The notes: generated by a model not told the origin, from the letters alone. 64,000 nt of DNA from Macrostomum lignano (GCA_002269645.1 NIVC01000166.1:62001-126000), one strand, 5' to 3'. Positions 22,311-54,157 are shown, counted from the first letter of the stretch. Translations and numbers: made by a program.

Positions 22311-23035
22311 CCACGCCCTCACTGGTCAAATTCAAGAACGCAAATACTACATTACTAAAACTAGCGATTTAAACGCTATTAAGCAATATTTAGCGATTTC
22401 TGAATACAAAAAGTTAATAAAAGCAAAAGTTAAAAGCTTCTTCTTCGTAAAATAGGCCATTCTTCTACAATGCCAACGGGGATCTCATGCAAACACCAAA
22501 GCTTTGTGGGTTTGAATCGGTTTGCAGGTTTGCCCGCGCCCTGCTGTTCCTTCATGCATAGCATCTATTCCCATCTTTTTTGGCTACAAATCACCCATCC
22601 ACCATGTCTAACCTCCGATCTCCCACGTCTAATCTCAAATCTCGCATATCTAATCTACGATCTACCATATCTAAACTCCAATCTCCCAAATCTAATGTCC
22701 AATCTTCCATATTTAAACTCAGATCTCTCATATCTAATCTTCGACCTTTTATATGAAATCTCCGATCTCCGCATCTCCGATCTCCCTGATCTACAATCTA
22801 ATCTCACTTATCTCACTCTTGAGATCTCGTGAATAATATTGACGGTACAAAATTGCCAGCAAACCGTTCTCATAATTCAAAACGATTTAACCCTTTATCA
22901 GTGTGAAATGACTCGTTTTTCCCTTCATTATCGCTCGTCTTCACTTCGCTCAACTCGCTTCGCTCATCCTCGCTTCATTTCGGTCAATCTCCCCATTTCA
23001 CACTTACAACGATTAATTCCCATTGAATTATGAGA

Positions 23036-23223
23036 ATACGCTCTCGTCGTTCGCTTTGGTTTGCTGGCAATTTTGTACCGTACCCAACACTTCCAACTCT
23101 ACCCAACTCTACCCAACTCTACCCAACTCTACCCAACTCTTCTAACACTTCCAACTCTCCCCAACTCTCTATAACCCCAGGCCGCGCCGCAGGCGCGAAG
23201 GGTCTTTTTCTGTTATTAAAAAT
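23036..23223 (+). repeat. Polinton left TIR (visible part), containing a 10-bp ctacccaact array
   Basis: Reverse complement of 54158-54345, apparently identical by eye. Confidence 0.95.
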
Positions 23224-23536
23224 GAACCGAGTTTACACCTTTTCTGTTAGTGATACTTTTGAGACTGTTGCTAAAAACGCAGAGATAATAAAACAACATA
23301 TTTTGAATGGAATAATTGATGAAGTTTATTTAAAATATGATGATAAGAACGAACTAAAACTTTATCCTTTAGAGCTGGATGGTTTGTATGATCTAGAACA
23401 AGAGGGAGAGTTAATATTTCAACTTGGAGATTATTTAAATTCGGATGATTGGGAGGTTCGTTCAGATGATTCTAACTCAACAAATAGCTCATATGAAACT
23501 AGTGATTCGGAGAATGAAATTGAAATTTTTATGTAA
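23222..23536 (+). CDS. Polinton hypothetical protein, 104 aa, acidic C-terminus
   Basis: ATG in the taaaaATG context at 23222; the listed upstream extension of the ORF is TIR sequence. Confidence 0.6.
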   Translation: MNRVYTFSVSDTFETVAKNAEIIKQHILNGIIDEVYLKYDDKNELKLYPLELDGLYDLEQEGELIFQLGDYLNSDDWEVRSDDSNSTNSSYETSDSENEIEIFM

Positions 23537-23545
23537 AAAATGGAA

Positions 23546-25122
23546 TTAGTTCGCAGACATTAGCTGGTTCTCATAAAAAGAACCTAATATTTCTTCACCA
23601 TCCTTATCAGCAATTATATAGGTTGTAGGATTTGTATTTAAAACTTTACTGATAGTAAATTTCTCACTTATTTTCCAATATCCTTTTCTTCCTTTTTCAA
23701 ACTTATCTTTCCATTTATAGTTATAAACAGAATCACCAACTTTAAAACCTTTAGTTTTCTTTTTTTCAAATTCTCCAAAAGTAACTTTAACATTTTCAGG
23801 ATTGATATAAGCTTGTTGAGGACTCATCTTTATAGCCGAATGATATGCGTAATTATAATCTTTCACTACGTCTGGTAATATTTTTACCCACTTTTGGTTA
23901 CCATTAAGACTAAACTGAAACCACAGTTTCTTCCCCAAAGTTCGATTAAATCTTTCTATTAATGCGTTTTTACTTTCTCCATAAATAGAATAAATTTTAT
24001 TAATATACTCCCCATTCGCGTCTTTTTTCCTTTCTTGTCCTTTTTCAAAATGATACAATTTATACATATGAGGATTGTAAAATTATTTTCCCTCATCAAC
24101 ACATAACCTTTCGCTTTTTTCTCCAAGACTTCTAAAAGCATCAGCAACCTCCTCTCCTTTTTTGGATTTCAAAGGAACAGCCCACGCGTATCTAGTAAAA
24201 CCATCTAATATGGTTAAAATATATTTATATCCTCTGTCGCTCGGCATCGACATTAAATCAGCATACCAAATTTCATTCTTTTTGAAGTTCATGATTTTTC
24301 TATAAAATTTAGGTTTTCGATATTCTTTATGAAGAATCTTTGCTTCATCAGAACTTAACCCACTACCACTTAACAACAAACAATCGACACAATTATTTCC
24401 ATGTTGGTTGTAATTAATTCCTAAACCAAATTTAACTTTAGATTGCAGAATCTTTTTCACCATCCACCTAGTTAATCTTTGGCTTACCGATAATCCTTGT
24501 AAGTTATCTAATCCTTGAATCATTTTTCTATCGGCTTCATGTTTTAATCTTAATGCTTCCTCGGGTGAGTTCTTGTCAGCATCTCTGTATGCTAAGTCAT
24601 GATAATATGCTAACCAATCAATACCGTTAATGGGAATTGAATCAGCTTTTGGAGTGTCATCAGGATTTAATCTCAAATCTAACCTAGTGCCGGGCAGTTT
24701 ACCCTCAATCTTTCGAAAGAGGCTGGAACACACCTTAAGCGGTTAAATTACCGCCCATCTCCGTCTGCTCTCTGAACCTTCTCCTTATCTGCCGACTTAG
24801 GAGCTTGGCTGCGCATTGCCACCTTGTCTTCAAGCTTGTTACCGTTGGGAAGAGGAGTTACCTCTGTTCCTTCAAAAGATTTCTCAATTGAAGTGGTACT
24901 TGAAGCTGTATGACGGGTTTCACGCAATTTGAAGATGTCGCCACAAATAGTGACTAGCAAGGACATTGACTTCCTCACTCAGGCCACGGGGTAACCTGTG
25001 AAATTATGCGATGGCAGGTGTAATTCATTTGTATACCTTCCAGTAGTAAAAATACTCGGTAAGCTTGTTAATCCTTTTTGAACATCTAAAAATCCTCCTT
25101 CAAATACTAATTGATTGCTCAT
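23546..25122 (-). pseudogene. Parvovirus-type PLA2 fused to retroviral-type (rve) integrase. Exon 1 25122-24994, group I intron, exon 2 24694-23546, with one in-frame TAA at 24085-24083
   Basis: Spliced product MSNQ..ELHLPSHNFTG|PGTRLDLRL..PINGIDWLAYYHDLAY (PLA2), then WYADL..LTILDGFTRYAWAVPLK..VDEGK*FYN..IERFNRTL (DDE). The two listed ORFs are in the same frame either side of the stop. Confidence 0.9.
24695..24993 (-). ncRNA. Group I self-splicing intron, subgroup IC1-like, 299 nt, no internal homing endonuclease
   Basis: Exon ends in U and intron ends in G. P AAAUUGCGUGAAA (24930-24918), Q AAUGCGCAGC (24817-24808), R GUUCAGAGAGCAGA (24777-24764), S AAGGUGUGUUCC (24736-24725). P1, P3, P4, P5abc, P6, P7, P8, P9, P9.0 and P10 all pair by hand. 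Confidence 0.92.
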
Positions 25123-25672
25123 TTTTAATAGTCTTAAAAATACATGATAGCACTAATTGTTTTGCAAACTCTTCAATGGTTGGTTGTTTAACTTTTTTAT
25201 AGTGATTATCTACGCTAGTTAAGTATCTTTTATTTGTCCAATGTTCAGACTTTTTTATCTGATCTTCGTCTTTGTAATTAAATGAAGAAGCGGGAATGAA
25301 ATGATCAATATGTAACATTCCAGTATAATCTTTTGACACATAATAATTTCTTGTGAAATTTATCCAATCAAAAAAGAATTCTTTTGTGCAACCAAGATAT
25401 GAGATATTGTCCTTGTCATTAAAATTTTTCAACGCCCAATTTATTCTATTTCTAATTAAAACAATATGTTTGTAATTATCATCAGTGTGACACTTATTTT
25501 TTCTATATTCATTCCATTTATCTTTATTGTTTTTTATCCAAATAGTAGATGAGGTATTATGACAAGATCGACAATCATTTCTAAATTTTTTTGAATCATT
25601 TCTCCAAAAATAAAATTCTTTCGTCATTGGTTTTTCTTGTTTACACTTAGTACAAATCTTTTTAGTTTCCAT
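25100..25672 (-). CDS. Free-standing HNH (HNN) endonuclease with N-terminal CxxC..CxxC zinc finger, 190 aa
   Basis: CTKC..CRSC plus LHIDHFIPASSF..HWTN..DN, matching the giant-virus-type HNH family pattern. Confidence 0.8.
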   Translation of the reverse strand: METKKICTKCKQEKPMTKEFYFWRNDSKKFRNDCRSCHNTSSTIWIKNNKDKWNEYRKNKCHTDDNYKHIVLIRNRINWALKNFNDKDNISYLGCTKEFFFDWINFTRNYYVSKDYTGMLHIDHFIPASSFNYKDEDQIKKSEHWTNKRYLTSVDNHYKKVKQPTIEEFAKQLVLSCIFKTIKNEQSISI

Positions 25673-25695
25673 TTTATAAAAAATAAATTTAACAA

Positions 25696-26370
25696 TTAAT
25701 TAATTCCAGTATGTCCAGCAGCTTTCGCAGCAGCTAAAACAAGTTTTCGTGGAGTTTTAAATCCTTCTCCAACAGCCGGTTTGTTATTTATAGAATCAAC
25801 AATCCTTTTATATAAACTTGTATTTTTAACAGCTCTTACTCCTAACTCATCATAAAAAATTTTAGCACTTACTAATTCATCTCTAGTGTATAAATCGGGG
25901 TTAAATTTTACCCTAGGGTTGGTAATAATATTATATGCTCCACCCAATTCTCTATATAGTTCATCCCGATTTTTATCAACTCCACCAATTCGATAATTAC
26001 CACCACCTAAATCTGTCACAGCAATACTAGTTGGTGCAGGTCTCGGATATTCATCAACCCCATCCCTTTCTGCACGTCTAATTTCTGCAACTCTCAATAA
26101 TGCTTGATCAGTCTCATAAGTAGGCGGCTCATCTAAAAGTTCATCCTCTTTTGGCTCAGTATTCTTAGCAATTTTTTCCAGAAGGTCTTTATCTGTTTTT
26201 TCTAGTTCACTAATTTTCCCCGTAATAGGATTAACAAAAGGAGCAGCAAATCTTTCGCCAGCTAATTGTATTCCTAACTTTCTTTTTTGCAAATTTCTAA
26301 CAAAATCAGAATATCTTTGCTTTTCTTTATAAATCGCTAACTCTCCATCAACATCCATAAATTGACTCAT
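25696..26370 (-). CDS. Polinton conserved (probable virion core) protein, 224 aa
   Basis: C-terminal LVLAAAKAAGHTG resembles the LLxASKxAGNTG motif of Polinton accessory proteins; aaaaaATG start. Confidence 0.55.
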   Translation of the reverse strand: MSQFMDVDGELAIYKEKQRYSDFVRNLQKRKLGIQLAGERFAAPFVNPITGKISELEKTDKDLLEKIAKNTEPKEDELLDEPPTYETDQALLRVAEIRRAERDGVDEYPRPAPTSIAVTDLGGGNYRIGGVDKNRDELYRELGGAYNIITNPRVKFNPDLYTRDELVSAKIFYDELGVRAVKNTSLYKRIVDSINNKPAVGEGFKTPRKLVLAAAKAAGHTGIN

Positions 26371-26405
26371 TTTTTAACATAAAAAAACTTTTTTAACTTA
26401 AAAAA

Positions 26406-27878
26406 ATGGCTGAAACAAAAACTATGTGGAGTGATAAATTTCATTTCAAAAAGCACCGTCAGTATATTAATGAGGTCAGGGCAAAAGATTTAAATTTTAC
26501 TCTACCAACAAGTGATAATTCAAATAACTTTACTACCGGAACGGTAACTTTTGACATCGGCGCAACCAACACTATATTGGATATGAAAAATGCGTTTTTC
26601 CGCGTTAGATGGTTGTATACTAGAAATGATGGAACTGCTCTTGCAGCCGGCGATATCGCAGATCGTTCTGGAATAATAATAGAAAATGATTGGTTTTATA
26701 AATGTTTTTCCCAAGCCCAACTGTCAGTTAATGGAGCCGAGGTTGAGACAGCATCAAACCCCGCAGAGATTAATGGAGTTTTGAAACATTTAAATTATAC
26801 TTATTTATCAAAACAAGTTGGTGATAATGTTGGGTGGATGCCTGATAAGGGTAATGGTCAAGCAGTAGTTTTCCCTAATGTACAAAACGCAGCTGGTGCA
26901 GATACCGCAGCTCTTATAGCTTATCTTAATACCAATATAGTTCCAGTTGTAACCACCATGACTAACACAAAAGATATTAATACAGGTTTTATAGATCGTC
27001 AGAATAAATTCCCAGTCGCGGTTTTAACCACGGCAACCGCATATGAGCAGGACTTTTCAATCTTCCCACTATTTGGGTTCTTCTCACCAAATCGAGTATG
27101 GAAAGGATTAAAATTTGGGATACAGTTGCAAATATCTGGTGGATATCAGCCTAGGATACTTTATGGAACCTCAATTTCAACCGATATAGCAGTTCGTATA
27201 GATTCAATTCAATTAGTCGTACCAACTATTGAGGTAACAGCCCCACTTTTAAAACACATCGATAATCAGTTAACGCATGATCAGGAAATATTTTATTTGA
27301 ATCGTCGACACTTTATGCGAACCATTAATAATAACCAGGATTCATTCCAGTGGCAGATAATTACATCAAAACGTCGGGTGAGATATATTTTTGTTTGGTT
27401 TAAAATAACAAACAGAAGGAGTAAAATAACAAATGGAGATTTATATTGGCTTCAATCGGGTGACATAGCAGCACAAGCAGTTACCGCAACAGACAATGCG
27501 GTTTCGGCTATTAACGAGTTTAATGTTCAGAATATCCGCCTGCAGGTTGATGATCAATATTATCCGGTTAAAGACCCCCTAAATTTAAATATAGCAAATA
27601 ATAATGTTAATGATTTTATAAAATATTATCAAGATTATGTCAAAAATGAAGCGTTTGCCGTCCCTCAGTACACACCCACAGAGTTTCTAAACATTCATCC
27701 AGTGGTTGTTTATGATCTAACGGCACAGAAAGAAAACGTAGCCAATGTTGGACTTAATTACATGTTAGAGATTAATAAAACCGGTAATCAGGCAATAGAC
27801 GCACACGTATTGTTTCTAGAGGAATATATGTCAATTGCTAAAGCTGATGGCACGATTGTTCGGGACGCCCCGCTGTAA
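26406..27878 (+). CDS. Major capsid protein (double jelly-roll), 490 aa
   Basis: Size, beta-rich composition, FSQAQLSVNGAEVE and IRLQVDDQYYP segments, position next to the ATPase and penton. Confidence 0.8.
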   Translation: MAETKTMWSDKFHFKKHRQYINEVRAKDLNFTLPTSDNSNNFTTGTVTFDIGATNTILDMKNAFFRVRWLYTRNDGTALAAGDIADRSGIIIENDWFYKCFSQAQLSVNGAEVETASNPAEINGVLKHLNYTYLSKQVGDNVGWMPDKGNGQAVVFPNVQNAAGADTAALIAYLNTNIVPVVTTMTNTKDINTGFIDRQNKFPVAVLTTATAYEQDFSIFPLFGFFSPNRVWKGLKFGIQLQISGGYQPRILYGTSISTDIAVRIDSIQLVVPTIEVTAPLLKHIDNQLTHDQEIFYLNRRHFMRTINNNQDSFQWQIITSKRRVRYIFVWFKITNRRSKITNGDLYWLQSGDIAAQAVTATDNAVSAINEFNVQNIRLQVDDQYYPVKDPLNLNIANNNVNDFIKYYQDYVKNEAFAVPQYTPTEFLNIHPVVVYDLTAQKENVANVGLNYMLEINKTGNQAIDAHVLFLEEYMSIAKADGTIVRDAPL

Positions 27879-27903
27879 AATTAGTTAAATTATTTCATTA
27901 AAA

Positions 27904-28665
27904 ATGGTAAAAGCAAAACACAATATTATATTTCCAAACGATCCTTTTCTTTGTTTAGTAATTGGTGGGTCGGGCAAAGGAAAAACACACTTTGTTTACG
28001 ATTTATTAACAACAGATGGAATGTTAGACTATAATAATTTATTAATATATACTAACAAACCTAGAATAAAATATTATGAATTTCTTAAACATGGATTAAA
28101 AAACAAATTAAAAAAAGATATCATGTTTAGAATGTTAAGAGCATATGAGCAATATGAGGACGATGATGAACCAAGATTTACACTCGATGACATTAAGGAT
28201 TTATGTAAAACAACGGCAGAAAATCCAGAAAACACTAACAACCGAGCCCCAACTGTTAGAGTATCAACCCGATTATCCTATGATCAAATTCCAAAACATG
28301 ATAAAACACTAATTATTTTTGATGATTGTATTAACGACGGCGATCAAGAATTGCAAAAGGAAATTTTTGTTAGTGGTAGAGGAGACGGAATTGGAGCTTT
28401 TTATCTAACTCAATCCTTTAGAGAATTAGAATCAATTATAAAAAAGAATGCTAGTTGTTGTGTAATGTTTGATTTGGATAACTATGATTTACAAAATATA
28501 CACGCTAGATTTAATCCTGGATTGGATGTAAAACCATTCAAAAGTATGTGTAAAAAAATTTGGGATGATAGTCAATACAAACATATATACATGTATATCA
28601 ACCCTAGGTTAGAAAGGAAAAATCGAATCTTAAAAGATCTGATAAAAGAAGACGATGAGGAATAA
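27904..28665 (+). CDS. A32/FtsK-like genome packaging ATPase, 253 aa
   Basis: Walker A GGSGKGKT, Walker B IIFDD, GR..LTQS motif C. Confidence 0.92.
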   Translation: MVKAKHNIIFPNDPFLCLVIGGSGKGKTHFVYDLLTTDGMLDYNNLLIYTNKPRIKYYEFLKHGLKNKLKKDIMFRMLRAYEQYEDDDEPRFTLDDIKDLCKTTAENPENTNNRAPTVRVSTRLSYDQIPKHDKTLIIFDDCINDGDQELQKEIFVSGRGDGIGAFYLTQSFRELESIIKKNASCCVMFDLDNYDLQNIHARFNPGLDVKPFKSMCKKIWDDSQYKHIYMYINPRLERKNRILKDLIKEDDEE

Positions 28666-28680
28666 TTCTCCACTATAAAA

Positions 28681-29466
28681 ATGGCTACAAATTTGGATAC
28701 TATAAAGCAATTGGTAGATCGAACTAATTCAAAATTTAGTACAACCTTACAGTTTATAATGACAAGAAGTGAGCAACTGATTCAATTGCGCGATCCGTTA
28801 CAACTCGATCAAAGCCTAAGTTATCAAATAGGTTTGATACTATTTTCAGTTTTTAACATGCCTCAATTAATTAATGCAACAAATAATCAATTTAGATATT
28901 CTAAAGATTCAGGAGCCAATTGGACAACATTTAGTGTTAATCCAGGAGCGTATTCCTATACCGATTTGAATGCTTATATAGAAGGAGAATTAACAGCTAA
29001 TGGCGATTGGGTAGCAGGCGCGATTGTTATAGGGGTTGATTTACCATCTGGCAGATTCACGCTATCACTAGAATCTGGATATCAGGTTGATTTCACAATT
29101 GCAAATTCACTCAGAACCATACTAGGATTTAATTCCCGAATAGTTACCGCATCAAGCACCGGCGATACCGTGGGAAATATTGAGGGTGGAGTTAATACAA
29201 TTAATATAACAACCGACATATCAAACGGTGGTTATATAACAGATGATAACGGAGTTTTGGTTCAACGTGGAATTATTTATTCAATCCCGTTTCTTGCTGT
29301 TCCAATTGGAGAGAAAATGATTGTTTCACCCCAAACCCCAATATATTATCCTTTAAATCAATATAGTGTTCAATCAATTTATATTAGGATCGTAGACGAA
29401 AGTGATAGATTAATAAGTTTTGGTGGGCAGTCAATAACGGTAATTTTACGTATAAAACAGGTTTAA
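28681..29466 (+). CDS. Minor capsid protein (penton, single jelly-roll), 261 aa
   Basis: NNQFRYS..PGAYS..DLN, INITTDI, YYPL..SIYIRIVDE..ISFGGQ..VILRIK pattern of Polinton mCP. Confidence 0.8.
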   Translation: MATNLDTIKQLVDRTNSKFSTTLQFIMTRSEQLIQLRDPLQLDQSLSYQIGLILFSVFNMPQLINATNNQFRYSKDSGANWTTFSVNPGAYSYTDLNAYIEGELTANGDWVAGAIVIGVDLPSGRFTLSLESGYQVDFTIANSLRTILGFNSRIVTASSTGDTVGNIEGGVNTINITTDISNGGYITDDNGVLVQRGIIYSIPFLAVPIGEKMIVSPQTPIYYPLNQYSVQSIYIRIVDESDRLISFGGQSITVILRIKQV

Positions 29467-29467
29467 T

Positions 29468-29524
29468 CGTATCTTCGATACGCGTGCTTCGCACGATCGA
29501 ACCAAAGGTTCGAGGACTTCGTCC
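29468..29524. other. Four abutting perfect triloop hairpins in an intergenic gap
   Basis: cgtatc-ttc-gatacg, cgtgc-ttc-gcacg, tcgaacc-aaa-ggttcga, ggac-ttc-gtcc. Confidence 0.85.
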
Positions 29525-29540
29525 GTTTCCCATAGTAAAA

Positions 29541-29726
29541 ATGGGTAATAATAATAACAATGGTTTAAAAAAACAATCAGATAAAGTTCAAAACGCAAAG
29601 GATAATTATGAAATCGAACTAACAAAATTGAAACAATTACAAGCAGAAAAAATCCGAAAGGAACTATTAAAACCCGCACCTACGAAACTAACTAAAACCA
29701 AGAGTTTTTTCAGGAACATAAAATGA
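29541..29726 (+). CDS. Small basic coiled-coil protein, 61 aa (MGNNNN..)
   Basis: aaaaATG context at 29541 just after the hairpin cluster; overlaps the protease start. Confidence 0.45.
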   Translation: MGNNNNNGLKKQSDKVQNAKDNYEIELTKLKQLQAEKIRKELLKPAPTKLTKTKSFFRNIK

Positions 29727-30160
29727 CTATGAATTGGCAGTTGTTCAAACAAAGATATGGAACAGACACAACAAGCAATATCGAATTAACAAATTGGGCG
29801 CGGCAGTTAAAAATAAAACCATTCAGATGTGTTATGCGGGATGAGATAAAAGACTTACCAAAATATGGATCTTTCATTGTTAATATTGAAACAACAAAAG
29901 AAAATGGTGTTCATTGGTCAGCAGTTTATTCAAAACCCAAACTTGTTTATTTTTTTGATTCATACGCGCTTCCTCCGTTACAGGAAATAAAAGACAAATT
30001 TAATCATACTAAAAATCGTTTATGTGGAGATCACCACGAACAATTTCAAACATTTGATAAAAGTTATTGCGGGCAAGCGGCGTTGTATTTTTTATATAGA
30101 ATTAACAACTCGAAGGAAAGACCCGAAGACTTTAAGATAATTTTAGATTCTATAAAATAG
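29723..30160 (+). CDS. Adenain-like cysteine protease, 145 aa
   Basis: GVHW, FFDSY, Q..CGQ catalytic His/Asp/Gln/Cys motifs. Confidence 0.92.
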   Translation: MTMNWQLFKQRYGTDTTSNIELTNWARQLKIKPFRCVMRDEIKDLPKYGSFIVNIETTKENGVHWSAVYSKPKLVYFFDSYALPPLQEIKDKFNHTKNRLCGDHHEQFQTFDKSYCGQAALYFLYRINNSKERPEDFKIILDSIK

Positions 30161-30170
30161 ACAGTAAAAA

Positions 30171-32156
30171 ATGTTATTTTCTGGAACGCCCTCATGGAAT
30201 GGAACATCAAGTACTGGTGGTGGTACAAGTGGTGGAATAAGTGTTACATTCGGAGATAATCGATATATTAATGAAGATGAAGGTTATAAAAAAACTGAAA
30301 TTGATACTAAACTAAATTTGAAACGGAATGTTGCAGATTCTTATACCAAAACCGAAATTGATAATTCATTAAATTTAAAACGCAATACAGTCGATTCTTA
30401 TATCAAAACTGAAATCGACACATCATTAAATTTGAAACGGAATGTTGCAGATTCTTATACCAAAACAGAGGTTGATAATTCATTAAATTTGAAAAGAGAT
30501 ATAACTGATTCATATACAAAAACAGAAGTTGATAATGGGTTAAATTTAAAAAGAGATATAACCGATTCTTATTCTCGAACTGATTCTGATTCGCGTTATG
30601 TTCAAACCACCGCAACCGGAACCTTAGATATGGACAACAATCGAATTATAAATGTTGCAATTACAACGAATAACTCGGTAGTTGATAAGAACTATGTCGA
30701 TAATCAGGTTGGTAGTCGTAATGGCAATATCAATATGAATAATTTTAAATTAACAAATTTATTGTTTGGAACAGAGGACACAGACTCGGTAAATCTAGGG
30801 CAAGTCAACGCTCGAGCTAATGTAACAGACGCCGATATTTTTGCCACGCCGCTTACATCAAATACTTCAAATCCAGATGTTGTTCTTACAGCATCCGAAA
30901 ATAACAACGATGCTTTTCGAGTTGGAGATGGAAGCCTTGCGACACAATGGTCACCAAATACCGGAACCACAACCAATATGGAAATACAATTTGAATTTTT
31001 AGGTTATAATCGAAGAATAAATGAATTAAGAATTACAGGCAGCGCAACAATTGATATTCCATCGGGATGGTCGGTTCGCGCAAAAAATGTTGCTACCGAT
31101 GCATGGACGGTATTACGAACGTCGGGATCGCCAATTCAAGCAACTTCATTAGCATTAACTAATTTAACGGTTAATTTTTGGAAATATTATAGCGTTTTGT
31201 TCCCAAATGGTGGGACAGTTACGCAACCTATCGAAGTTCGCCTGATACAATTATTTGAACACCGAGTTGAAATTCAAGATCTTAATTGGCCGAATCAAAT
31301 ACTTTCCGCAACCCCACGAGCATACGTAGATCAGTTAGCAACCCCAACTTCAAATGGTAGAATGTCTGCGGGTGATAAAAATAAATTAGATAACATTCCT
31401 GCAATTGATGCCGCATTATTCGAGCCAGTAATTTGTAATTGGACTGGATATCAAAATCCAACAACTGCCGGAGATATATATCCAGTTGGTTCTTTAATTG
31501 GCGACGCTTCTTATATCGATTATCAAAATGGTGCTAGAATTACTCGTGAAACTGGTGGTGTCAGTGGGGCATTACAATTTAATTTCACACATTTTCAAAA
31601 TATATCAGCGTCTTTCTATTTCCGAGTTGCCAATTCTGGAGGAACTGGCGCAGATGCGGTTTGGTTTTATGCATATTGTCACGAACGACCAACAAGTGAA
31701 AGCGGGGCTGGTTTAGCAACAGACGCTGTATTGATAGTATTTGCGAGTGAGTGGCATGATAAATTTGGCCTACTTTGGAGTTCTAAAAAATCAGACGGAT
31801 CAAGCCGCGCGGATGTTAATACTGGCGCGGATCAAACGGTAGACTATGCAAATATTGATAACGGTGATTGGCATTTATTTGAAATTAATATTTTAAATCA
31901 AAGGGTTTGGTATAGAATACATTCATACAATGTTTCAGCCGATTCTTATACTCTCATTGGCCAGAACGTTTTCACATATGATAGTGGAAATTGGGGAACT
32001 TTAGATAAATCTGGAACCCTTATGGGTTTTGGTGCTCGAACCGGAGGAGCAGATGCTGCACATTTTATTCGTGGCGCCGCCGTTTGTGGTAGCACATCGT
32101 TTGGTTATGTTTTTCCCTCTACTGGTTATTTGGAAAAACCTCCTGTAGCAATATAA
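30171..32156 (+). CDS. Fibre / receptor-binding-like protein, 661 aa
   Basis: About five 19-aa YTKTEIDNSLNLKRNVADS repeats, DSVNLGQV neck-like motif, discoidin-like middle (DGSLATQWSP) and ConA/L-lectin-like C-terminus; domain names are inferred. Confidence 0.65.
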   Translation: MLFSGTPSWNGTSSTGGGTSGGISVTFGDNRYINEDEGYKKTEIDTKLNLKRNVADSYTKTEIDNSLNLKRNTVDSYIKTEIDTSLNLKRNVADSYTKTEVDNSLNLKRDITDSYTKTEVDNGLNLKRDITDSYSRTDSDSRYVQTTATGTLDMDNNRIINVAITTNNSVVDKNYVDNQVGSRNGNINMNNFKLTNLLFGTEDTDSVNLGQVNARANVTDADIFATPLTSNTSNPDVVLTASENNNDAFRVGDGSLATQWSPNTGTTTNMEIQFEFLGYNRRINELRITGSATIDIPSGWSVRAKNVATDAWTVLRTSGSPIQATSLALTNLTVNFWKYYSVLFPNGGTVTQPIEVRLIQLFEHRVEIQDLNWPNQILSATPRAYVDQLATPTSNGRMSAGDKNKLDNIPAIDAALFEPVICNWTGYQNPTTAGDIYPVGSLIGDASYIDYQNGARITRETGGVSGALQFNFTHFQNISASFYFRVANSGGTGADAVWFYAYCHERPTSESGAGLATDAVLIVFASEWHDKFGLLWSSKKSDGSSRADVNTGADQTVDYANIDNGDWHLFEINILNQRVWYRIHSYNVSADSYTLIGQNVFTYDSGNWGTLDKSGTLMGFGARTGGADAAHFIRGAAVCGSTSFGYVFPSTGYLEKPPVAI

Positions 32157-32172
32157 AATATTTATATATAAA

Positions 32173-32499
32173 ATGGCTTTTAGTAGAACTCCATCGATTC
32201 GACAAAATAATGTTATTATTCCAATTCCTAAACAAGAATCAAATATAAAAACTTTTAAATCTCATACGCGAATTTTATTTAGTGGAGTGAATGTCCAGGA
32301 TAATAAGAAACTTCAAGAATTAATTAAATTATTAAAAAATCATATTATACTTCAAGAGTTTTGGAAAATAGGTTTTAAATGGGAGAAAAAAGAAAGAATA
32401 ACTCCAATACAATACCTATTGAGCTCAGGACAAATCCCCAAAGAGCGCGGGGAATTCATTTTAGTGCTATTAAAAATAGACGAGAATGTCGGTGTCTGA
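32173..32499 (+). CDS. Polinton hypothetical protein, 108 aa
   Basis: tataaaATG start; tightly packed between neighbours. Confidence 0.55.
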   Translation: MAFSRTPSIRQNNVIIPIPKQESNIKTFKSHTRILFSGVNVQDNKKLQELIKLLKNHIILQEFWKIGFKWEKKERITPIQYLLSSGQIPKERGEFILVLLKIDENVGV

Positions 32500-33141
32500 A
32501 GCAGATAAAAGGGAACGTGACCATTTTAATTATGTGCATGTTACATGTTAAGTAATGTTGATCGTATTAACTATGATTATGATTTATATGCTAAAAAAGT
32601 AAGAAGGATTTCAAACCATATCAGAAATATGGATTTTTTCAATATTGGATTTGGAAGCTTATCAATGTAATGTGTAATCGTTTTAGGTATTTTACAGTCA
32701 ATTCCAACTCTTAATTTATCTCAATTATTTTTAGGTATTTCAATTGGCTCAATATCAGGTTTTGAATTAATCAGAAACTTATCAATACTTTTAGCAATTA
32801 AATTATATCTTAAAAAAAGAAAGGAAAAATATAAATCATTAAGAGACGTTGCAAAACAATATAAAAATCAGTTATATTTATATGTGCAAAAAATATTAGA
32901 TGATGGAGAGATAACAATTCATGAGTTATCAACTGCGGTTGAGTTATATGAAAAATATTTAAAAGATAAAAATAGAATTTTGGATGTTGAAACTTTTACC
33001 GATATGGAATTAAAAGAATTACGTTTGGACAAACCCAAAGCTCCACCTATAGAAACATTAGGTATTTACGAACCCGAAACTATTGGTACTGGGGTACAAA
33101 GCCCGCGATCAGGAAGTGCTGTAGAACTTAACGTTGTTTAA
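32486..33141 (+). pseudogene. Disrupted Polinton membrane protein (two hydrophobic segments + ILDDGEITIHEL motif)
   Basis: Frame change near 32535-32550 and a TAA near 32668; the continuous reading gives FNIGFGSLSM*CVIVLGILQ..LFLGISIG..VQKILDDGEITIHELSTAVELYEKY. Confidence 0.55.
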
Positions 33142-33651
33142 TCATGACAAGTCATGTGTACAAAGTACAGTTTTTCTAACGCATATGTTATGTATTCTTC
33201 CCAAAGTGGTAACTCTCTTGTAATCTTAGGTTTAAATTTTTTATCAATACATAAAAATTTCAATGACTTTTTCAATAACATTTCGTTAGGTATGTTGCCT
33301 ATCCTTATAAACTTTGTATTCACTCGCAAAAGAAAATTGAAATAATATCCAACTAAAATTAAAATCCTTTCAGCGTCTTTCGAACTTAATCCCTTTCCTT
33401 TATTTAAATGGAAAAAGTTATTATATAAATAAACATTATTTCCGGGAATTAAAATTGGATGAGAAATGTCCCTTGTAAGATTTCTTAAAATTGTGTTTTT
33501 AAAATAGTAATATGAGTTTTCAATCTTTTTTTATTTTTTCAAATTGATATACTTTAGAACATGAATAACACATATGATATATATCTCCGTTTGCTGTTTG
33601 ACCTCTATGCATAGTCACGTTACATTTTTTACATTCATAAATGTCTTTCAT
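33138..33651 (-). pseudogene. ~170-aa protein with N-terminal zinc ribbon, +1 frameshift in an A homopolymer near 33530
   Basis: MKDIYECKKCNV..MCYSCSK then a poly-A slip; span is 514 nt = 3n+1. The frameshift may be a sequencing error. Confidence 0.5.
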
Positions 33652-33677
33652 TTTTTTGTTATTTTTTTAGATTAAAA

Positions 33678-34010
33678 ATGGAGAGCTGGTTTAAAACCGA
33701 TTCTAATGTGATTAATTATCTCACACCCAATATGTTGGAGAATAAAGAATATAATATTATATGTTTGAGACAGGTTAAATTTATTGGACTTCAATCGATA
33801 TTTTTACAATTGGATGGAAATACAGTCCTATGTCTAAGTGGGAATGGTGTTAAAAATTTTCCAGTTTTAGTTATTAATAAACCGAAAATGTTTGTTATGA
33901 AATATAGTCAGGGGGATGGGTTGCAATTTAAACTAAAACAAACAAATAATAAAAAGAGTGACAGGACTGTAAAATTGGCTGCCGTTTGGGAGACTGGCGA
34001 AGATGACTAA
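33678..34010 (+). CDS. Polinton hypothetical protein, 110 aa
   Basis: taaaaATG start; overlaps the next ORF. Confidence 0.55.
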   Translation: MESWFKTDSNVINYLTPNMLENKEYNIICLRQVKFIGLQSIFLQLDGNTVLCLSGNGVKNFPVLVINKPKMFVMKYSQGDGLQFKLKQTNNKKSDRTVKLAAVWETGEDD

Positions 34011-34383
34011 ATTTTTTTATAAGAAAATGGAGACAATAAAAATCCTAATTACAAAAAAGCGCGAACTTAATGATATTAATAAAAAAATAAATACTATGTT
34101 TTATAGTGAGTATGGGGATGATATGTTTCCTATCCGATACGAGTTGGATAAAAGAAAGCGTTTTATAAAAGCTGAGATTGCTTATGCTGAAGCAGTAATT
34201 GAAATTGAAATCGATCGACTTGTTACGAAAATAAAAATACTTAGGAAAAAAATAAAAGATTGTGAGGAAAATTGGTGTTCTATAAAATCGAACGAAGTTC
34301 GCGACCCTGCGGGGCGATATGAAATCGAAATAGTGGATATTATGCTTAAACAATTACATGCTTTGGTTTTTTTCAAGTGCTAG
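34003..34383 (+). CDS. Polinton hypothetical coiled-coil protein, 126 aa
   Basis: ATGA-type overlap with the previous ORF; converges on the PolB stop. Confidence 0.5.
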   Translation: MTKFFYKKMETIKILITKKRELNDINKKINTMFYSEYGDDMFPIRYELDKRKRFIKAEIAYAEAVIEIEIDRLVTKIKILRKKIKDCEENWCSIKSNEVRDPAGRYEIEIVDIMLKQLHALVFFKC

Positions 34384-34628
34384 TTCATCAATATCGAACT
34401 CAAAACAATTATAATCAACATCAAATAGTAAACTTTTATAATATTCAATTGAATGCTCGTGCTGTGGTTTGTCATCAAAATAGTTTTTAAAGAATGGTTT
34501 CATAACTCCGTTTTTATCTGGTTTCTCTCTTTTAAATGTGTTTATCGTAGAGGTATATGTTTTTGATATTGTTGATCCGCTTTGGGGGATTATTATCCCA
34601 CCTTCAAACGATCGTTTCCACGGAGCAT
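34354..34628 (-). pseudogene. Detached C-terminal ~91 codons of the Polinton PolB
   Basis: Joining 49335 to 34628 across one TA copy gives in-frame IKVNN-NAPWKRSFEGGIIIP..NQSM*. Confidence 0.88.
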
Positions 34629-36668
34629 TACCCTTACTGCCAGTTTATGTTGTACCAATATTGACAGTGTTGCATAGATATTGCCGTGACATTTTATGTT
34701 TCAGCTACATTGTAACAATGTTGCCGTGACAACATTTTATTTTGTAGTGGTATTTTACTATTGAGGCTGCTTATAGTAGAACATAAGGGCACATGACCTT
34801 GCTCAAAAATTAGAAAATAATAAAACCATTTAGCTGGTAAAAGGCTGTTTCTTTGAAAGTAGCCAAGGCACAGAAAATTTATATTTAAGTACAAATTTTT
34901 TTGTCGTTTTTTAGGCCTTAATAAGTATTTTCTTTTGTTAATGTTAGAAGAAGTGTATTGCTCAATACAATTTATCGTTTATAAAACTTAAAAGATGTAA
35001 ACAATACATGGATAAAATTTGCATGGATAAAATTCTTGAGCTTGCTTGTAGCCCTTGTTAGATAGTTCTTGTTAGAACAGGCTAATATTTGGTTATTGTA
35101 GAGTCTAACACTACTTATGACATTTTTCAATATTCAAGTCACTAGTTACCTCATTGTTTTTTAAACAGTTCTATAGTCCCAGTCTTTCTTAATCTTAACT
35201 TAGCTAGACAACCAGACAAAGGCATAGCTAGGCGTCATTTATTTTCAGACCTTGCTGCCCTAGTAGATAGTTTTGGATGTGTTCTAAGCTTTATTTAAGT
35301 ATTTTAGGCATTTAATTTATAAAAAATTATAGTATGTAATGTAGGTAGGCCATTTTTATTTTAATTTAAGTTGGTATTAAAAATTGGATAGGCTAGGCCT
35401 ACAATTAGAACTTAGTAGCCTAGATGGTAGGCCTAACCTAGCTTGAACTATAAAACTTTGTATGCTAGCATGTGCTAAATCTAAGTTTATATATAATTAA
35501 AAAAATTAGGCCTACACTTGAAGCCTAGGTTTAAATGAATAATTCCAACTGGACTCAACTTATTGTAGTATTGAGCCATTATTTTTGGTTTTTTCATCTA
35601 TATTTTACTATAGGCAAAGGTATAGGGAGGGAGGATAGGGGGATGTATCCTTCCCTAAAGAGCCTAACTAATTTTTTTTGTTGCCTTTTGTTGCTATATA
35701 TGCTACCATGTAACTCTATCATAATACTTTTACCTTGGTATACCTTCCATAAAAAATTCTCCTTGGTATATCCCCTGTAGGAAATTCCTAGCTACACCTA
35801 CTGACTATAGACATAGCCATGGGGCTTATAAGTTATCAAGAATAATTAAAATATTTAAATAGTATATAGTTTTTCAAATATAATTTTATTATATCCCTAT
35901 TTACGAGTATTTAGGTATTTTAATTATGTTGATTTCAAAATATTTTCTTGAATGCCCTTTGATTTTTTTCTATATTGGCTATTTTAGCTTAAACCTAATA
36001 TTTATATAATTGCTTAATTTATTATATACTAATTAGGCCTATTTACTGTTTTGGAAAAAAATTATTTTCATAACTAGGGGGGGGCCTATTGGGTGGTCAT
36101 GTTAGCTGGCTGCATGTGTACTCAATCAGTTAGTTCATGTACTTTAATTTAATAGTTGTGGGTTGCTATGGCCCTGAGTATCAGTTCTATTAGCAAAGAA
36201 CAATCTGGGCCAATCTGGACTGTGCTGCCCTAGGGCTAAGGGATAAGGTCAATGGAAAAAAGCTAATATATATTGTCCATCAAAAGTTCTGAAACCCTTG
36301 CTACAATGCCTTCTAGCAGATATAATTTCAGTCTGTTTCAATTGTAACTTGATTCAAATGAAAGCTGCAGATCTCAGCTCCATAATATGGTCAAGAAAAA
36401 GTTTATTCAAAGAAGCGCGTGTGAACAGGCCAGTGTTATGTATATAAAGGTTAGAGAAAAAAGTGAGGAAAAGACTAAGAAATGCATCTACTAAGAATGC
36501 ATCTTATTTACAAATGTATCATACCATTAAGTAAAGTTTAGATATAACTACTTATGTATAAGCAATGTATATATCCTTTGTGATATAGTCATTGTCATAT
36601 GGGCTATATTCTTCAGTTTTCACATTAATATTCAATAAATCAAAAACTTTTCAGATCTTTACAAAATC

Positions 36669-38858
36669 ATGGAGAAGCAAATGAGCAAACGTACTATTCA
36701 GAGGCAAGCATTATCTGAGTACTATATGGTCCAAGACCAGAGAAGTTCTGCATCTGCTTCTGAATATCCTAATATAGGACTATCAGTTGACCAAGTACTA
36801 GAAGCTCAAGATTCCTGTGTATCTCTGTCTAGCAACCAACAAGAAGTTGAAATGGAAGCAGATATAGGATCTAAAGAGTTTGAAGTGGTACAGGCTCTAA
36901 ACCATTTTGGTAAGTTAATTTGTGGTTAACTGTTTAGCCATTTTTTGCTCTACTATAGATGAAATATATTTTGACTCCCTAAAAATTGTCACACTTTTCA
37001 GGTTCAAGTAATGCAAGCTTTCAAAGTAGTGCTAATCTATCTGATCGAGGCTCTGAATTTTCGGCTATGGAGTCTGAGCTTAACTTGATTGACCGTAGGG
37101 AGCAACTACAAACTGCTCTCTGTGATTGGGTCAAAGCAAAAGATCCAGACACTGCAATGGTTAATGATTTACTTCATCGCTTGGAAGCCATTGAGCCTGG
37201 CCTGCCACGTGACTATCGTACTCTGATGAAAACTGAACGCAAAGTATCTGTAAAAACTGTTGAACCTGGCCACTATTACCATTTTGGTGTCAAAGCTGCT
37301 TTAAATTTTGTACTGGCTAATCGTCCATCTTTGTTGCTGATGAGTACCGTTTTTTTTTCATCTTTTTATTGATGGTGCGCAGGTCTATCGGAGCACAACA
37401 TGTACCCTTTGGCCAATTTTTGGACGCCTAAGGGACCTTCGTGACTGTTCTTTTATCATCGGCATCTATTGTGGCGATTCGAAGCCTGCCTTTGTTAATG
37501 ACTTTCTGGCTGATTGCATAGCTGAGCTGCACAGTTTAATCTCAGCTGGATTCATAATGCCAAATGGAAAATGTGTTCCCTTTATTTTGGAGATGGTAAT
37601 GTGCGACACACCTGCTCGATCCTATGTTAAAAGTACCAAACATTGCACAGGCTACTTTTGATGTGACAAATGCGTAGTCGAAGGCGAGTATGTTGCACGT
37701 AGGGTCTGTTTTGTCGATGTTTCTGCACCTCTTCGCACTGATGATATGTTCCGCACGCCTGAAGCCTATATAGGCCACATTCGCAATCGCCAACAAAGTC
37801 CGTTTTTGTCCTTAGCAATAGACGTGATCAAGTGCTTTCCATTAGATCCCATGCACCTGATTTATGAGGGCGCTGTTTTCAGAATTTTAAAGTCCTTATC
37901 TGCCGCACATGTTGACTACCGCGTCCCTTCGCTTTCTATACGGCAAATCAGCACAACATTAACGTCTCTGAGATCATGTATAACGCACGATTTTCCTCGT
38001 CGGCCGCGATCCCTTAATGTTTTAAAACTCTGGAAGGCAACAGAATTGCGCATGTTTATCTTATATCTTGCACCTGTTGCTCTGAAGGGAATTGTTAGTT
38101 CTGTTATGTACCAGTTAATTCTCTCATTGCACACATTCACATTTCTTATGTCGCATCCCGTTTTATGTTCGCATTATTGCGATTTCTCAGAGGACCTCAT
38201 CAAGTGGTTTGTTTCTGAGTGCACAAAAGCATGGGGCCCAGAGTTCATTGTATTTTCGATTCACGCCCTAATCCATGTGCCGAATGACGTGCGACTGTTC
38301 GGTTGTCTCGAAAATTTTAGCTGCTTTTGGGGTGAAAACTTTATACGCTTTTTTACTAAGTTTTGTAGAGGCCCATCATTCACCCTGCAACAAGTTGTCA
38401 AGCGAGTTCTAGAAAGAGATGTTACCCTAGGCTATTTTGATAAGTTTTCTGGAACTCAGAATGTGTCTTTTTCTGGAATTAGACCCATTCCTAACATTAC
38501 TGTCCATCATTTATCTATCTCCGGAGCCTTTTCAAAAGTAATTCTGCCTGATCGACACACATTCATTTCCAATTTACATCCGGATTGCTATGTTTTTACT
38601 AAGCAAGGTGCTGTTGTTTGCGTGAAGCATATTTTATCATGCGTTGATAATAGTTTCATTCTAGTTGGTCTACAGTATCGCCGTATGGAACCATTTTATG
38701 ACAGCGCTGTCAATTCGTTAGATATAAATATAGTAGTTGTTAGCGATCTCTCTCGTGATTTGAGCTTCATCCCATCTGCCGATTTATTGTGCAAAGGGAT
38801 GCTTTTGAAGCAGCGCGAAGGCGGCTTAGTAGCACTTCCTATTTTGCACACCTTTTGA
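36669..38858 (+). pseudogene. EnSpm-type DDE transposase; intron 36910-37001, +1 slip in poly-T at ~37350-37358, TGA at 37659
   Basis: FIDG, CDTPARS..K..GYF*CDKC, DPMHL, WKATELRMF, HALIHV..FSCFWGEN motifs. Confidence 0.88.
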
Positions 38859-38897
38859 AATTTGCCTGTTCAAGCGTTCCGATTTAAATTAAGTTTC

Positions 38898-41457
38898 ATG
38901 ATGTCATCTTCTGACTCTGATCAAGAAGAGCCATCGATGCCTGCTCTGACCTATGCTCTCGTTTTATTCGCTGCCGACCGTTCTTTCGATTTGGTACTCA
39001 AAACATGGTTCAAGTCCCCGACGACTGTGCTGTGGCCCCCAAGACGAGCGTATGAGAAGGCAATCGATGGACGGATCGCTCCAGACGAAAATTGGACTCT
39101 ACACGAGGTGATCGTATTGGCACAGCATGGTACGTAAGCTGGTTTTTCTCAGTTCAGGGTTTGTTTCCCGTTTAGCATATACTTTTAAAGAGTTTCAAGA
39201 GTAAATATGTTTGTCATTTTACTGTAAAGCATGGTTAATAGTGACTTGTGAAGTTTCAAAGCCCATATATGTATGCCTATGTATGTATAAAATATAGGTT
39301 TTTTGCACTTGGTTTGTATTTTTGTTTATTACTTGTTTATTTATAACTGACATTATTACAAATTACATCGTACAATAAACAACTAAAAAATGTATCGCAT
39401 AATACTGATATGAATTAAAGTGCTCAATTATGACCTGCCAGGGAAAAATATTTGCATTACATTGCGCTTCTCGTTATATAACCTCTCAGATTCATGGCGC
39501 TCGGCTTTAAAATTAAGAAGTCGTTATGAAAACAAAGGTGACGTCGTATCTACGGACTGCGAAGTGTCGAGGCATCGTCCACCTGCTGATGTCTTCATCG
39601 ATAGACACAGTAATTGTCTGGACGAGGAGATCGAATATTCAAGGAATCGCAAATCAAGATCGAGATTACCAGCTGGTGAACCGACTGTGGTACCCAAGGC
39701 ACCAAGGCTGCAGACTGTACTGCAACAATCACATGCTTCGAACATCCGCCCTGGGCCCAACAGCAACAATTCAGCTACATCAGTTATTACCGCACCATGT
39801 GGGATTTTATCAGCTCGTGCTGCGGCAATGCCATCATCAGCTGGCGCTGCGGCAGTGTCATCATCTGCTGGCGCTGCGGCAATGCCATCATCAGCTGGCG
39901 CTGCGGCAGTGTCATCATCAGCTGGCGCTGCGGCAATGCCATCATCAGCTGGCGATGCGGCAATGCCATCATCAGCTGGCGCTGCGGCAATGCCATCACC
40001 AGCGAATCGTAACCGGTCTGCTCTGCCGTCTGCAGTGTCGTCGCCGGGCTTACGAAATTCACCATCGGTCGAACTGTCGCCTTTCGCAGCTGCAAATACA
40101 CAGTCACTTCTGGTGACTCTCGGCGATTTGTACGGAGAACAACCTGATGTTGCTAGTCCAGGACAATCGTCAACTGTAACTTTGGCAGAAGTTGCTTCTA
40201 TGATTTCCAAAATAGAAGGTAACAGTTATGATATTTTTTTACCCTACCAGTAAATGCTGCTTACAGATAGACTCACTATTTACTCCTTAGATCCAAATTC
40301 ATGAATCCACACTAAATATTAAAATGAATCTGTTCATTGACTGACATGACTATAGCTTATACTCATTTTATATTTTCACAACAACTACGCTTTGATTTTT
40401 TATGAGAAAAATGGTTTGTCTCGTATAGAAGTATATTTCTCAGATACATATATAGCAAAAACATATAATATGCGTATAATAAGCAAACAACGATTTTATT
40501 TTTCTAATATTTCAGCGTCGCAGCGGGCGACGTATCTTAAAGTGTGCAGCATCGATCGGCGACTTCAATCGATTGAGCAGCATATCTCCTCAAACCCATT
40601 GCCCGCTGCTCATTCTGCTGCTGATAGTCGACAACACCAAATTCCTACTGACAAAGCCATTTTGGGTGGCTTGCCGTTCAACTCCCCGGAGGGGCTTCTA
40701 GCATGGAGCCGTCAAGTCAAGGAGGATCGAAAGTCAACAGAGACTGTGGTAAATATTCGTTAAATAAAATGATACAGCTAGAATGCAATGTGCACTGTAA
40801 TTAAAGCCACTGATTTCTTTTTTTGCTAGAGATTTCTGATTCTTTAAAATATCGTACAATGATAGCAAAACGATTTGCAAGCTTTGATAGATTCTTATAA
40901 GAAGCTATCTAACAAGACTTCTTTCGACTTCAATTTTGTGATCAACCAACATCAACATTTCAGTTCGCCTTTCTCCGTCGGTTGGGTGGAAAGTCTGTTT
41001 CAACGCAAGTAAGCACCCTTATGTACCAACTGATGACCGACGGATTGGCTAAGCAGTACAGCCTTCGTGGTGCCGTTCGTAGGGGTGTGTCCAAACTGCC
41101 GTTTGAAAACCTTGGACTTCTCCCCCTTATCAAAAGTAAGAAAAGCAGAATGTAATGCCCATTAGTTTCTAATTCAGACGTTGAAATAGTCCATTTGTGT
41201 TCGATTTAATTTATAATTCAGGAATTCTCTCGTTCTCAGATGTCGTATGGACGGCCCATAAGACGGCGACAGGACTCGCGATCGAGGAAGCCGTGGGCGA
41301 GCATCTGCGCTTTGCCGCCGTTCGAGAACGTCGCAAAGCTGAACGCGCCTCTAGTGGGCAAAATGCTGCCGATTCTGGTGTTGGTCCTAGATTGGACGGC
41401 GAAGGCGATGCTGAAGGTTTCGGTGCTGACGACGCTGACGAAGAAGACAATTATTAA
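38898..41457 (+). CDS. EnSpm second gene (spliced; DUF4806-like C-terminus; 27-bp AAAMPSSAG repeat)
   Basis: GT-AG exons; LVLKTWF..VLWPP N-terminus and FLRRLGGKSV..LAKQYSLRG..KLPFENL C-terminus; internal exon limits approximate. Confidence 0.65.
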
Positions 41458-42136
41458 TGGCGTGTAAAATCAATCGCAATGTACCAAGTTATTTTGTCAA
41501 CATCCAGCTGTCCGAATTTCTTTGATTGTTTGATAGCAAAGGACATTTTTGTATTGAAGCCTCTAGTTGTGGGTGAATATAAAAAAATGATGCTGCAAAG
41601 TGATTTTCCTTCTTAAAGCCGCTTTGTATGACTTTGTATGCCATATTATTTCCCCCTTATCTAAGTTATATTTGCATACCATTGACTTACAAATTTACAA
41701 CAAACCCTATTGACATCTCTTTGCGCAGTAAAAACCATTTGCAATTTATTCTGTTTTGAAGTAAAATTCCATCTAGAAAAATATAAAACCAACAACTTTT
41801 TGTTGTACTTCGAGTGCGCCATTTTGTTTCATTCTTCCTATTGAATTGGATTAAAGCTGCAGGGTGGTCTTGCGTCTCGTTTTGTTTTTTTCAGAATATT
41901 AAAACAATCTACTACAAATTAAATAATCTCGCTGCATTACTATCAGTAGGAAGAAAAGAGATTTCAAAATGTTGTTATGTCAACATTGCTTTAATGTTAT
42001 GGCAACATTATATAGCAACATATGACAACATTTGCAACGACAAAAAATATGTTGCCGCAACATTGACATCAACAATTCAGCAACATTAGATATCAACGTT
42101 GTGACAACATTGTGGCAATATACCTGGCAGCTAGGG

Positions 42137-52686: not shown

Positions 52687-52774
52687 TTTATAGAATATAA
52701 TTTATATAATATTTGAATTATTGGTTTTTTAATTTTGCGTTTTTGGTGTCCCGACCCACCCCCCCCCCAGGAGC

Positions 52775-53728: not shown

Positions 53729-53738
53729 TTTTATATTG

Positions 53739-54149: not shown

Positions 54150-54157
54150 TTTTGTCT

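Follow-up and report, generated by a model that had tools for sequence, protein, structure and literature searches.

A candidate nuclease–intron conflict module, resembling phage collaborative homing, at the phospholipase–integrase gene of Polintons in Macrostomum lignano

The phospholipase A2-integrase gene of a Polinton family in the Macrostomum lignano genome is split by a group I intron and is preceded by a slot which holds either of two unrelated nucleases. On balance, and with moderate confidence, we read these parts as a nuclease-intron conflict module of animal Polintons that works like the collaborative homing known from phages; we infer cleavage, splicing and homing from the sequences compared here, and membership in collaborative homing is putative. 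The window, which is the whole stretch of DNA that was analysed (64,000 nucleotides, NIVC01000166.1:62001-126000), contains one such Polinton, and an initial annotation of it proposed that the HNH nuclease gene and the intron beside it form a collaborative-homing pair. Part of that proposal stands, as the genome links a nuclease, the intron and a target site to one another; the HNH enzyme was not singled out as the partner, and the evidence points instead to the restriction-type occupant of the slot as the nuclease with which the intron is associated.

The window element is a Polinton (Maverick) with TIRs at 23035-23238 and 54143-54346, a pPolB, a packaging ATPase and an rve integrase, and its features are given in Table 1. 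That its host genome is animal is borne out by 86 Wnt matches. The capsid, protease and fibre labels were assigned from gene order and motifs and had no Pfam match. Window 34631-42092 is an inserted element of ~7.5 kb with a 370-aa frame at 37746-38858 for which Pfam gave no match, and a near-identical tandem duplication of 7198 bp (36555-50950), which may be an assembly artefact, takes in part of pPolB. A gypsy-type LTR retrotransposon with a PNMA-like gag and a long open pol frame lies within the right TIR (54346 to about 63700). The polymerase slot is polymorphic (window 49291-52686 vs L160:3471-7442); the window pPolB was matched in 2 of 15 other elements, and the inspected elements that do not carry it have instead a polymerase-like gene of 1320 aa, which is unrelated and contains an endonuclease VII domain.

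Table 1. Features of the window Polinton and of its phospholipase A2-integrase gene (positions counted from the first letter of the window).
Feature	Position	Strand	Description
Polinton left part	23035-34630		TIR, integrase, nuclease slot, capsid, ATPase, minor capsid, protease, fibre-like gene; GGNCC count 0
Remainder of integrase reading frame	23546-24067	(-)	From frames and Pfam
Exon 2	24083-24694	(-)	Remaining phospholipase domain, then first part of rve integrase
Split GGNCC	24693-24996	(-)	GGT 24996-24994 with CC 24694-24693; phospholipase-motif codons for Gly-Pro
Intron A	24695-24993	(-)	ORF-less group I intron, 299 nt; Rfam RF00028 63.3 bits; terminal G in window copy
P9.0	AG 24724-24723 and CU 24697-24696	(-)	Precedes terminal G
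P7 strands	24726-24770	(-)	GAGCA 24770-24766, UGUUC 24730-24726; guanosine-binding G-C pair; read from sequence and Rfam alignment
P1 helix	24980-24998	(-)	Exon CAGGU and guide GCCUG; U.G at 5' splice site (U24994-G24984); in predicted fold
Exon 1, phospholipase A2-integrase gene	24994-25122	(-)	43 codons, the last being Gly codon GGT; start overlaps nuclease gene
Nuclease gene	25100-25672	(-)	Free-standing HNH-type (beta-beta-alpha-metal), 190 aa; slot holds Eco47II-like restriction nuclease in other copies
Polinton right part	49335-54346		pPolB, pX-like gene, TIR; GGNCC count 0

Intron A interrupts the reading frame precisely, with a U.G pair at the 5' splice site, and its limits (24993-24695) were set by natural intron-less copies. 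Phospholip_A2_4 was matched in an intron-less copy at 31.6 bits (cut-off 23.9), in addition to rve. The RF00028 match of intron A (63.3 bits, gathering 50, E 1.5e-15) was obtained in a 901-base search, and two longer variants of the intron scored 56.8 and 53.6 bits; intron A went undetected when the whole window or 32 kb of it was searched with Rfam. A 3' splice site 9 nt upstream, where the Rfam alignment ends, was rejected because the intron-less copies join Gly-Pro directly and P9.0 precedes the true end. As annotated initially, the intron has no endonuclease of its own, and its internal frame of 76 aa is ribozyme core sequence. Of the 102 intron A copies, 101 share an unchanged P7 5' strand. 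The folding energy of intron A alone is unremarkable (z -1.7), and contigs from 4 sequencing runs of uncertain kind contained no exon joint spanning the intron, a result that speaks neither for nor against splicing. Exon 2 of the window copy has an in-frame stop at 24083-24085, a position at which most other copies are open. We know of no description of group I ribozymes working in animal nuclear DNA.

Group I introns conventionally end in G. The terminal base of intron A is A, not G, in 76 of the 102 copies, and on many backgrounds. The exon start is CCCGG beside 69 of the 76 A-ending introns and CCGGG beside 23 of the 26 that end in G, a link which may reflect better P10 pairing or mere linkage. 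The A-ending introns may splice badly; purifying selection on their exons equals that on the exons beside G-ending introns (pN/pS 0.30 and 0.07 vs 0.30 and 0.06). On the P7 5' strand, the terminal A was not linked to any change of the guanosine-binding site; the other P7 strand (3') was judged by eye only. A group I intron ending in A has reportedly been seen in Coxiella, and the A-ending introns here provide a natural test of the limits of the terminal-G rule.

The reading of the neighbouring gene as an intact 190-aa nuclease, upstream of the intron and on the same strand, was upheld. Its frame is open throughout and contains C7/C10, C34/C37, D123-H124, N147 and N156 (CxxC..CxxC and DH..N..N), and its structure model (pLDDT 92.5) matches HNH proteins of giant viruses and phages. 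There were 38 viral fold matches at E<=0.001, many of them named HNH, and the Bodo saltans virus 'Intron encoded endonuclease' A0A2H4UUB1 was matched at E 2.9e-9, while PDB fold searches with the model returned weak rows only. Pfam gave no match for the protein and a word-index search found no relatives; 4318 relatives were recovered at E<=0.001. The residues of the DH..N..N motif (D123, H124, N147, N156) are invariant across 49 distinct intact HNH genes, and the N-terminal half is more variable than the catalytic half. Purifying selection was detected on both of the slot nucleases (dN/dS 0.27 and 0.49). The overlap and spacing were also as first described, with the phospholipase start codon (25122) placed 23 nt inside the HNH gene at its 3' end, and 106 nt separating the end of the HNH stop from the intron.

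The window HNH is probably a homing endonuclease, the relatives of which appear to be intron-encoded, and its target is probably a longer sequence close to this intron junction. A 37% identical relative, P0006, and its cluster have a C-terminal peptide that is 72% identical over 43 aa to the translated core of the window intron, and this relative, known here from its protein sequence, probably resides inside the intron lineage of the window. Furthermore, peaks of diversity flank the intron junction on both sides (0.21-0.24 vs 0.02-0.15), which would fit a long HNH recognition site at this position.

Genome pattern searches gave 118 matches to exon 2 and 103 to the HNH motif, with 100 of each among the matches listed, and 126 loci were examined. 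Seven incomplete loci were dropped, and the 119 complete loci were classified as HNH with intron A (80), HNH with intron B (14), HNH with no intron (3), restriction nuclease with intron A (21) and other (1). Thirty further loci comprised restriction nuclease with intron A (9) or intron B (7), HNH with intron A (1), truncated copies of the window family, family A (3), and copies of a second family (10). Across both sets the HNH gene occupied the slot in 98 of 136 assessable copies and the Eco47II-like nuclease in 37; these copy counts exceed the number of independent insertions because the assembly has haplotype duplicates.

The intron does not need the HNH gene, and the gene also occurs in copies that lack the intron. 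Co-occurrence, the check suggested initially, fails to single out the HNH, as all 37 assessable copies with a free-standing restriction nuclease have the intron and no HNH. The constant presence of the intron beside the restriction nuclease is a finding of low power, because intron-less family A copies are rare. The intron-less junction pattern was found genome-wide in only three family A copies, all of which carry the HNH gene (two intact, with the catalytic residues kept), and in 19 copies of the second Polinton family (family B). The difference between the slot types in the frequency of intron-less copies, 0/37 for the restriction nuclease vs 3/98 for HNH, is not significant (about p 0.38, calculated by hand). 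The arrangement in the window is nevertheless that of a collaborative-homing pair, with a free-standing HNH gene next to an ORF-less intron. Two intact HNH genes lie on alleles that lack the intron; they argue against the intron as the sole protection from HNH, and they weaken the case for a strict HNH-intron collaboration. This HNH by itself is probably not the partner nuclease.

Of the slot genes next to intron A, 34 of 101 are broken. Identical flanks are common to differing slot and intron states, and slot exchange rests on counts of these flanks; as the family is mosaic in every part inspected, shared flanks need not mean homing. A third slot occupant was seen in L077, where a 155-aa acidic frame is followed by an HNH 3' remnant. 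In L094:1013-1340 and 20 other copies the junction is occupied by a second group I intron, intron B, which has a different catalytic core and the same P5 extension as intron A, an assignment which rests on helices read by eye. Neither intron B nor one of the intron A copies was detected by Rfam. Intron B looks chimeric, and the exon 2 start of its alleles is recoded; these were read by eye as Gly-Ala-Gly-Leu and contain no GGNCC even after splicing.

The Eco47II-like nuclease fills the exact slot of the HNH gene and has the same overlap with the phospholipase start. Pfam RE_Eco47II (PF09553) matched the free-standing form at E 2.4e-4, which is below the cut-off, and an intron-encoded form, described below, at 29.5 bits (cut-off 25.9). 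In a protein atlas clustering the nuclease groups with the Eco47II and EcoO109I families. The top fold match of its model was EcoO109I (Z 9.6, rmsd 3.6, 167 aligned, TM 0.67; next row Z 6.0), with AvaII among the next rows, and the fold is of the PD-(D/E)xK type; a PDB sequence search with the restriction-nuclease profile returned nothing. AvaII recognises GGWCC. The sites of Eco47II and EcoO109I are GGNCC (PMC10305163) and RG^GNCCY (PMC3089450), respectively, and from family, fold and site avoidance we infer that the slot nuclease cuts G^GNCC. If this predicted site is correct, the intron interrupts it: the junction sequence is GGNCC in 100 of 102 intron A copies and in all three intron-less copies. 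No cognate DNA methyltransferase was found in 23 window frames or in 11 frames of one nuclease-bearing element, with several small genes unassigned. The slot nuclease has in common with Eco47II, EcoO109I and AvaII its sequence family, its fold and a predicted GGNCC core, but unlike in type II enzyme systems no methyltransferase was found beside it or in the one element scanned, and protection of the Polinton appears to consist of absent sites together with the intron.

Across the left and right parts of the window Polinton (counted as 23035-34600 and 49335-54346) there is no GGNCC in 16,579 bp, where 8.9 (Markov) or 19.4 (GG times CC) would be expected. The other spacings of GG and CC occur 9-19 times, and GGNCC is the sole zero-count word among 136 spaced four-letter words. 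When the 12 reading frames were shuffled, a count of zero was reached in 0/1000 codon-order shuffles (mean 13.9) and 4/1000 synonymous shuffles (mean 5.1), and the 11 window Polinton proteins contain no Gly-Pro dipeptide, with about 8 expected. The aligned parts of 15 other elements have no GGNCC in 12 cases and one in three (expected 12-19), a count that leaves out the junction site of intron-less copies as it falls between aligned segments. The controls were not depleted, with 48 sites in host DNA, 14 in the inserted transposon, 47 in the gypsy element and 11 in a third Polinton-like stretch. Two restriction-nuclease copies carry one GGNCC each, which may be due to mutation after insertion. 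CANTG and CCNGG are also under-represented in the window Polinton (observed/expected 0.56), less fully than GGNCC.

Family B Polintons have an integrase about 66% identical to that of the window family and no HNH nearby. A genome search with a database relative identified family B alleles whose nuclease frame continues into the core of the intron. Thirteen of these intron-plus alleles were seen whole; the intron is at the same junction, is 869-880 nt long in the nine measured, and has 37 bases that are 100% identical to the window intron. The nuclease which it encodes is 62% identical to the free-standing Eco47II-like form; a 9-bp stem closes the loop that contains it, at a place where the window intron has a short hairpin. 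The same intron-core peptide forms the end of 6/9 database relatives of the Eco47II-like nuclease, known here from protein alone. In L056 (about 2225-2261) a 37-base piece of the intron 5' end was also seen, ~700 bases upstream of a family B gene that has no intron.

Fixed differences between 9-10 intron-plus and 18-19 intron-less family B alleles number three within 30 nt upstream and one downstream at the junction. In the integrase tree, which is poorly resolved, the intron-plus alleles formed one clade in 0% of 200 bootstrap trees. Such junction-only differences resemble a short co-conversion tract in the sequences; most of them could reflect selection for P1/P10 or guide pairing and not co-conversion. 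Family B is also depleted in GGNCC, and of three uninterrupted 9.9-kb pieces two have no site other than the junction, which is one of five sites in the third; a fourth piece, interrupted by other DNA, has many. The family is less clean, with five GGNCC in L193 and three in the L196 capsid gene, and copies of it without a nuclease avoid the word as well. All 19 intron-less family B copies have GGNCC at the junction, and in 18 it is the only site within about 1.4 kb. Three states, intron-less, nuclease beside the intron and nuclease in the intron, thus coexist in one genome.

In the mechanism that we propose, the slot before the phospholipase gene holds either the HNH nuclease or the Eco47II-like PD-(D/E)xK nuclease. 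The latter enzyme, for which no methylase was found, would cut G^GNCC, and the elements would protect themselves by purging GGNCC, down to the avoidance of Gly-Pro. One site persists, at the Gly-Pro of the phospholipase motif. It is split in its middle by the intron, which leaves intron-bearing DNA without a site; splicing would restore the phospholipase protein. In intron B alleles the forced site appears to have been recoded rather than hidden. An intron-less rival, its other sites purged, would be cut once, two bases from the insertion point, and because rivals are purged of other GGNCC a five-base cutter could act like a homing endonuclease. Repair from an intron-bearing copy would then spread the intron (homing), copying with it a nuclease that is inside it or about a hundred bases away, and failed repair would remove the rival (interference). 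The HNH enzyme is proposed to be a second selfish, free-standing homing-type nuclease, which competes for the same slot, would be exchanged on identical flanks, and travels with a gene that is already protected. Against this reading, a five-base cutter with no methylase should also cut the GGNCC-rich host genome, and survival of the host would need tight silencing of integrated copies or action only in the lytic phase; moreover, the 19 intron-less copies of family B persist.

This persistence would be less of a difficulty if the GGNCC cutter were a weapon without homing, degrading the DNA of the host or of co-infecting viruses in a viral phase, with purging and the intron as self-protection, and with introns and nucleases moving by ordinary recombination. 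A short, promiscuous site demands avoidance across the whole element, GGNCC is kept in host DNA and in the third Polinton-like stretch, and endonuclease-mediated interference has been proposed for Bodo saltans virus (PMC5871332). We nevertheless consider this explanation unlikely, as a nuclease inside the intron at the very site, nuclease relatives that run into the same intron core (6/9) and allele differences that cluster at the junction are all marks of intron mobility. Alternatively, it could be the HNH that cuts the junction of intron-less copies, with the intron as protection from this cutting and the restriction-type nuclease as a parallel newcomer. HNH is the commoner occupant of the slot (98/136), the P0006 cluster ends in the intron-core peptide, in a giant-virus contig a relative and a group I intron overlap, and both the diversity peaks on either side of the junction and the more variable N-terminal half are consistent with this, the peaks being expected for evasion of a long recognition site. 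However, all three intron-less family A copies carry HNH, two of them intact, and would need to be protected by polymorphism, and HNH leaves the GGNCC avoidance unexplained; the chances of this reading therefore seem to us rather poor.

Finally, the parts may be accidental neighbours, with an intron fixed, and possibly decaying, at a conserved motif, a slot that is a tolerant landing place for selfish nucleases, and a loss of GGNCC from another cause, such as an enzyme of a former host or helper virus. Conserved motifs are favoured by introns anyway (PMC2988022), about a third of the slot genes beside intron A (34/101) are broken, most intron A copies are without the terminal G, and family B avoids GGNCC even without a nuclease. 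However, one and the same five-letter sequence is the avoided word, the predicted nuclease site and the insertion point; in addition, the nuclease occurs inside the intron, and purifying selection on the exons is the same whether the intron ends in A or in G, and we regard an accident as very improbable.

Collaborative homing has been defined for phage F-CphI and psbA (PMC6083498) and described as a route to mobile introns (PMC2988022); the model goes back to Bonocora and Shub 2009 and Zeng et al. 2009, and is given here as presented in PMC6083498 and PMC2988022. The F-CphI system and the psbA intron of cyanophage S-PM2, as described there, are similar to the Polinton module in that a free-standing nuclease is located by an ORF-less group I intron which interrupts the nuclease site, and a composite mobile intron is likewise a further state of phage collaborative homing. 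Unlike the F-CphI system, the one here belongs to an endogenous virus of an animal nucleus, has two unrelated nuclease folds alternating in the slot and has all three states in one genome, and its likely partner is of the type II restriction type, with a five-base site that would be made unique by genome-wide purging. In the available text of PMC11296320 the collaborative-homing idea is applied to helicase and nuclease genes of entomopoxviruses and not to introns.

Single-protein scans of viral and metagenome contigs and a search of metagenomes with the intron pattern gave no related loci. In IMG/VR, related introns were present in 5 of 7 loci, with segments 72-88% identical to the intron lineage of the window, and the genes that host them are presumably giant-virus capsid and transcription-factor genes. 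These related group I introns lie in giant-virus-like contigs (L216-L222), one of which (L219) has several intron segments, an HNH frame and a GIY-YIG-like frame inside one capsid-like gene. On one IMG/VR giant-virus contig an HNH of the window family overlaps a group I intron. The four related viral loci counted have 3-4 GGNCC each and, unlike the window, show no comparable site avoidance. The intron nucleases of Bodo saltans virus, which has a related HNH family and intron lineage, are described as weapons in the available text of PMC5871332; they differ from those of the window in being intron-encoded, in polymerase or capsid genes.

Group I introns were likewise reported in Polinton-like viruses of protists (PMC12220804), where they are short RF00028 introns (309-376 bp) in elements that also have HNH and GIY-YIG genes. 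These differ from the window in that the reports concern protists only, and the available text of that paper makes no tie to a nuclease, a target site or avoidance; its tables S11 and S12 may list related cases. Adintovirus PLA2X is a parvovirus-like phospholipase domain in animal Polintons, as here, and is described without introns in the available text of PMC8502044; in contrast to that pX fusion, the phospholipase in the window is fused to an integrase and split by a group I intron. A literature search with most subscription journals outside its scope found no report of an arrangement of nuclease slot, intron and GGNCC.

The route from a free-standing nuclease to a mobile intron has been proposed from few phages, and here three states of it can be compared in one genome with more than 100 copies, and are testable with short natural DNA substrates. 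If the reading that we favour is true, site purging together with an intron would be a new means of self/non-self discrimination with no methylation, a restriction enzyme would be acting as a homing enzyme, and group I ribozymes would be working in animal nuclear DNA. It would further imply that Polintons recombine and fight in a shared extrachromosomal phase, with introns that are linked to giant viruses.

Small GC-rich palindromic inserts of ~30-35 bases, in frame and sometimes doubled, were seen at the junction of the nuclease gene and exon 1 (L005, L010, L029), and inserts of the same kind and size were present in the P5 region of the intron (L068, L075). Palindromes of a similar kind are present in the terminal repeats.
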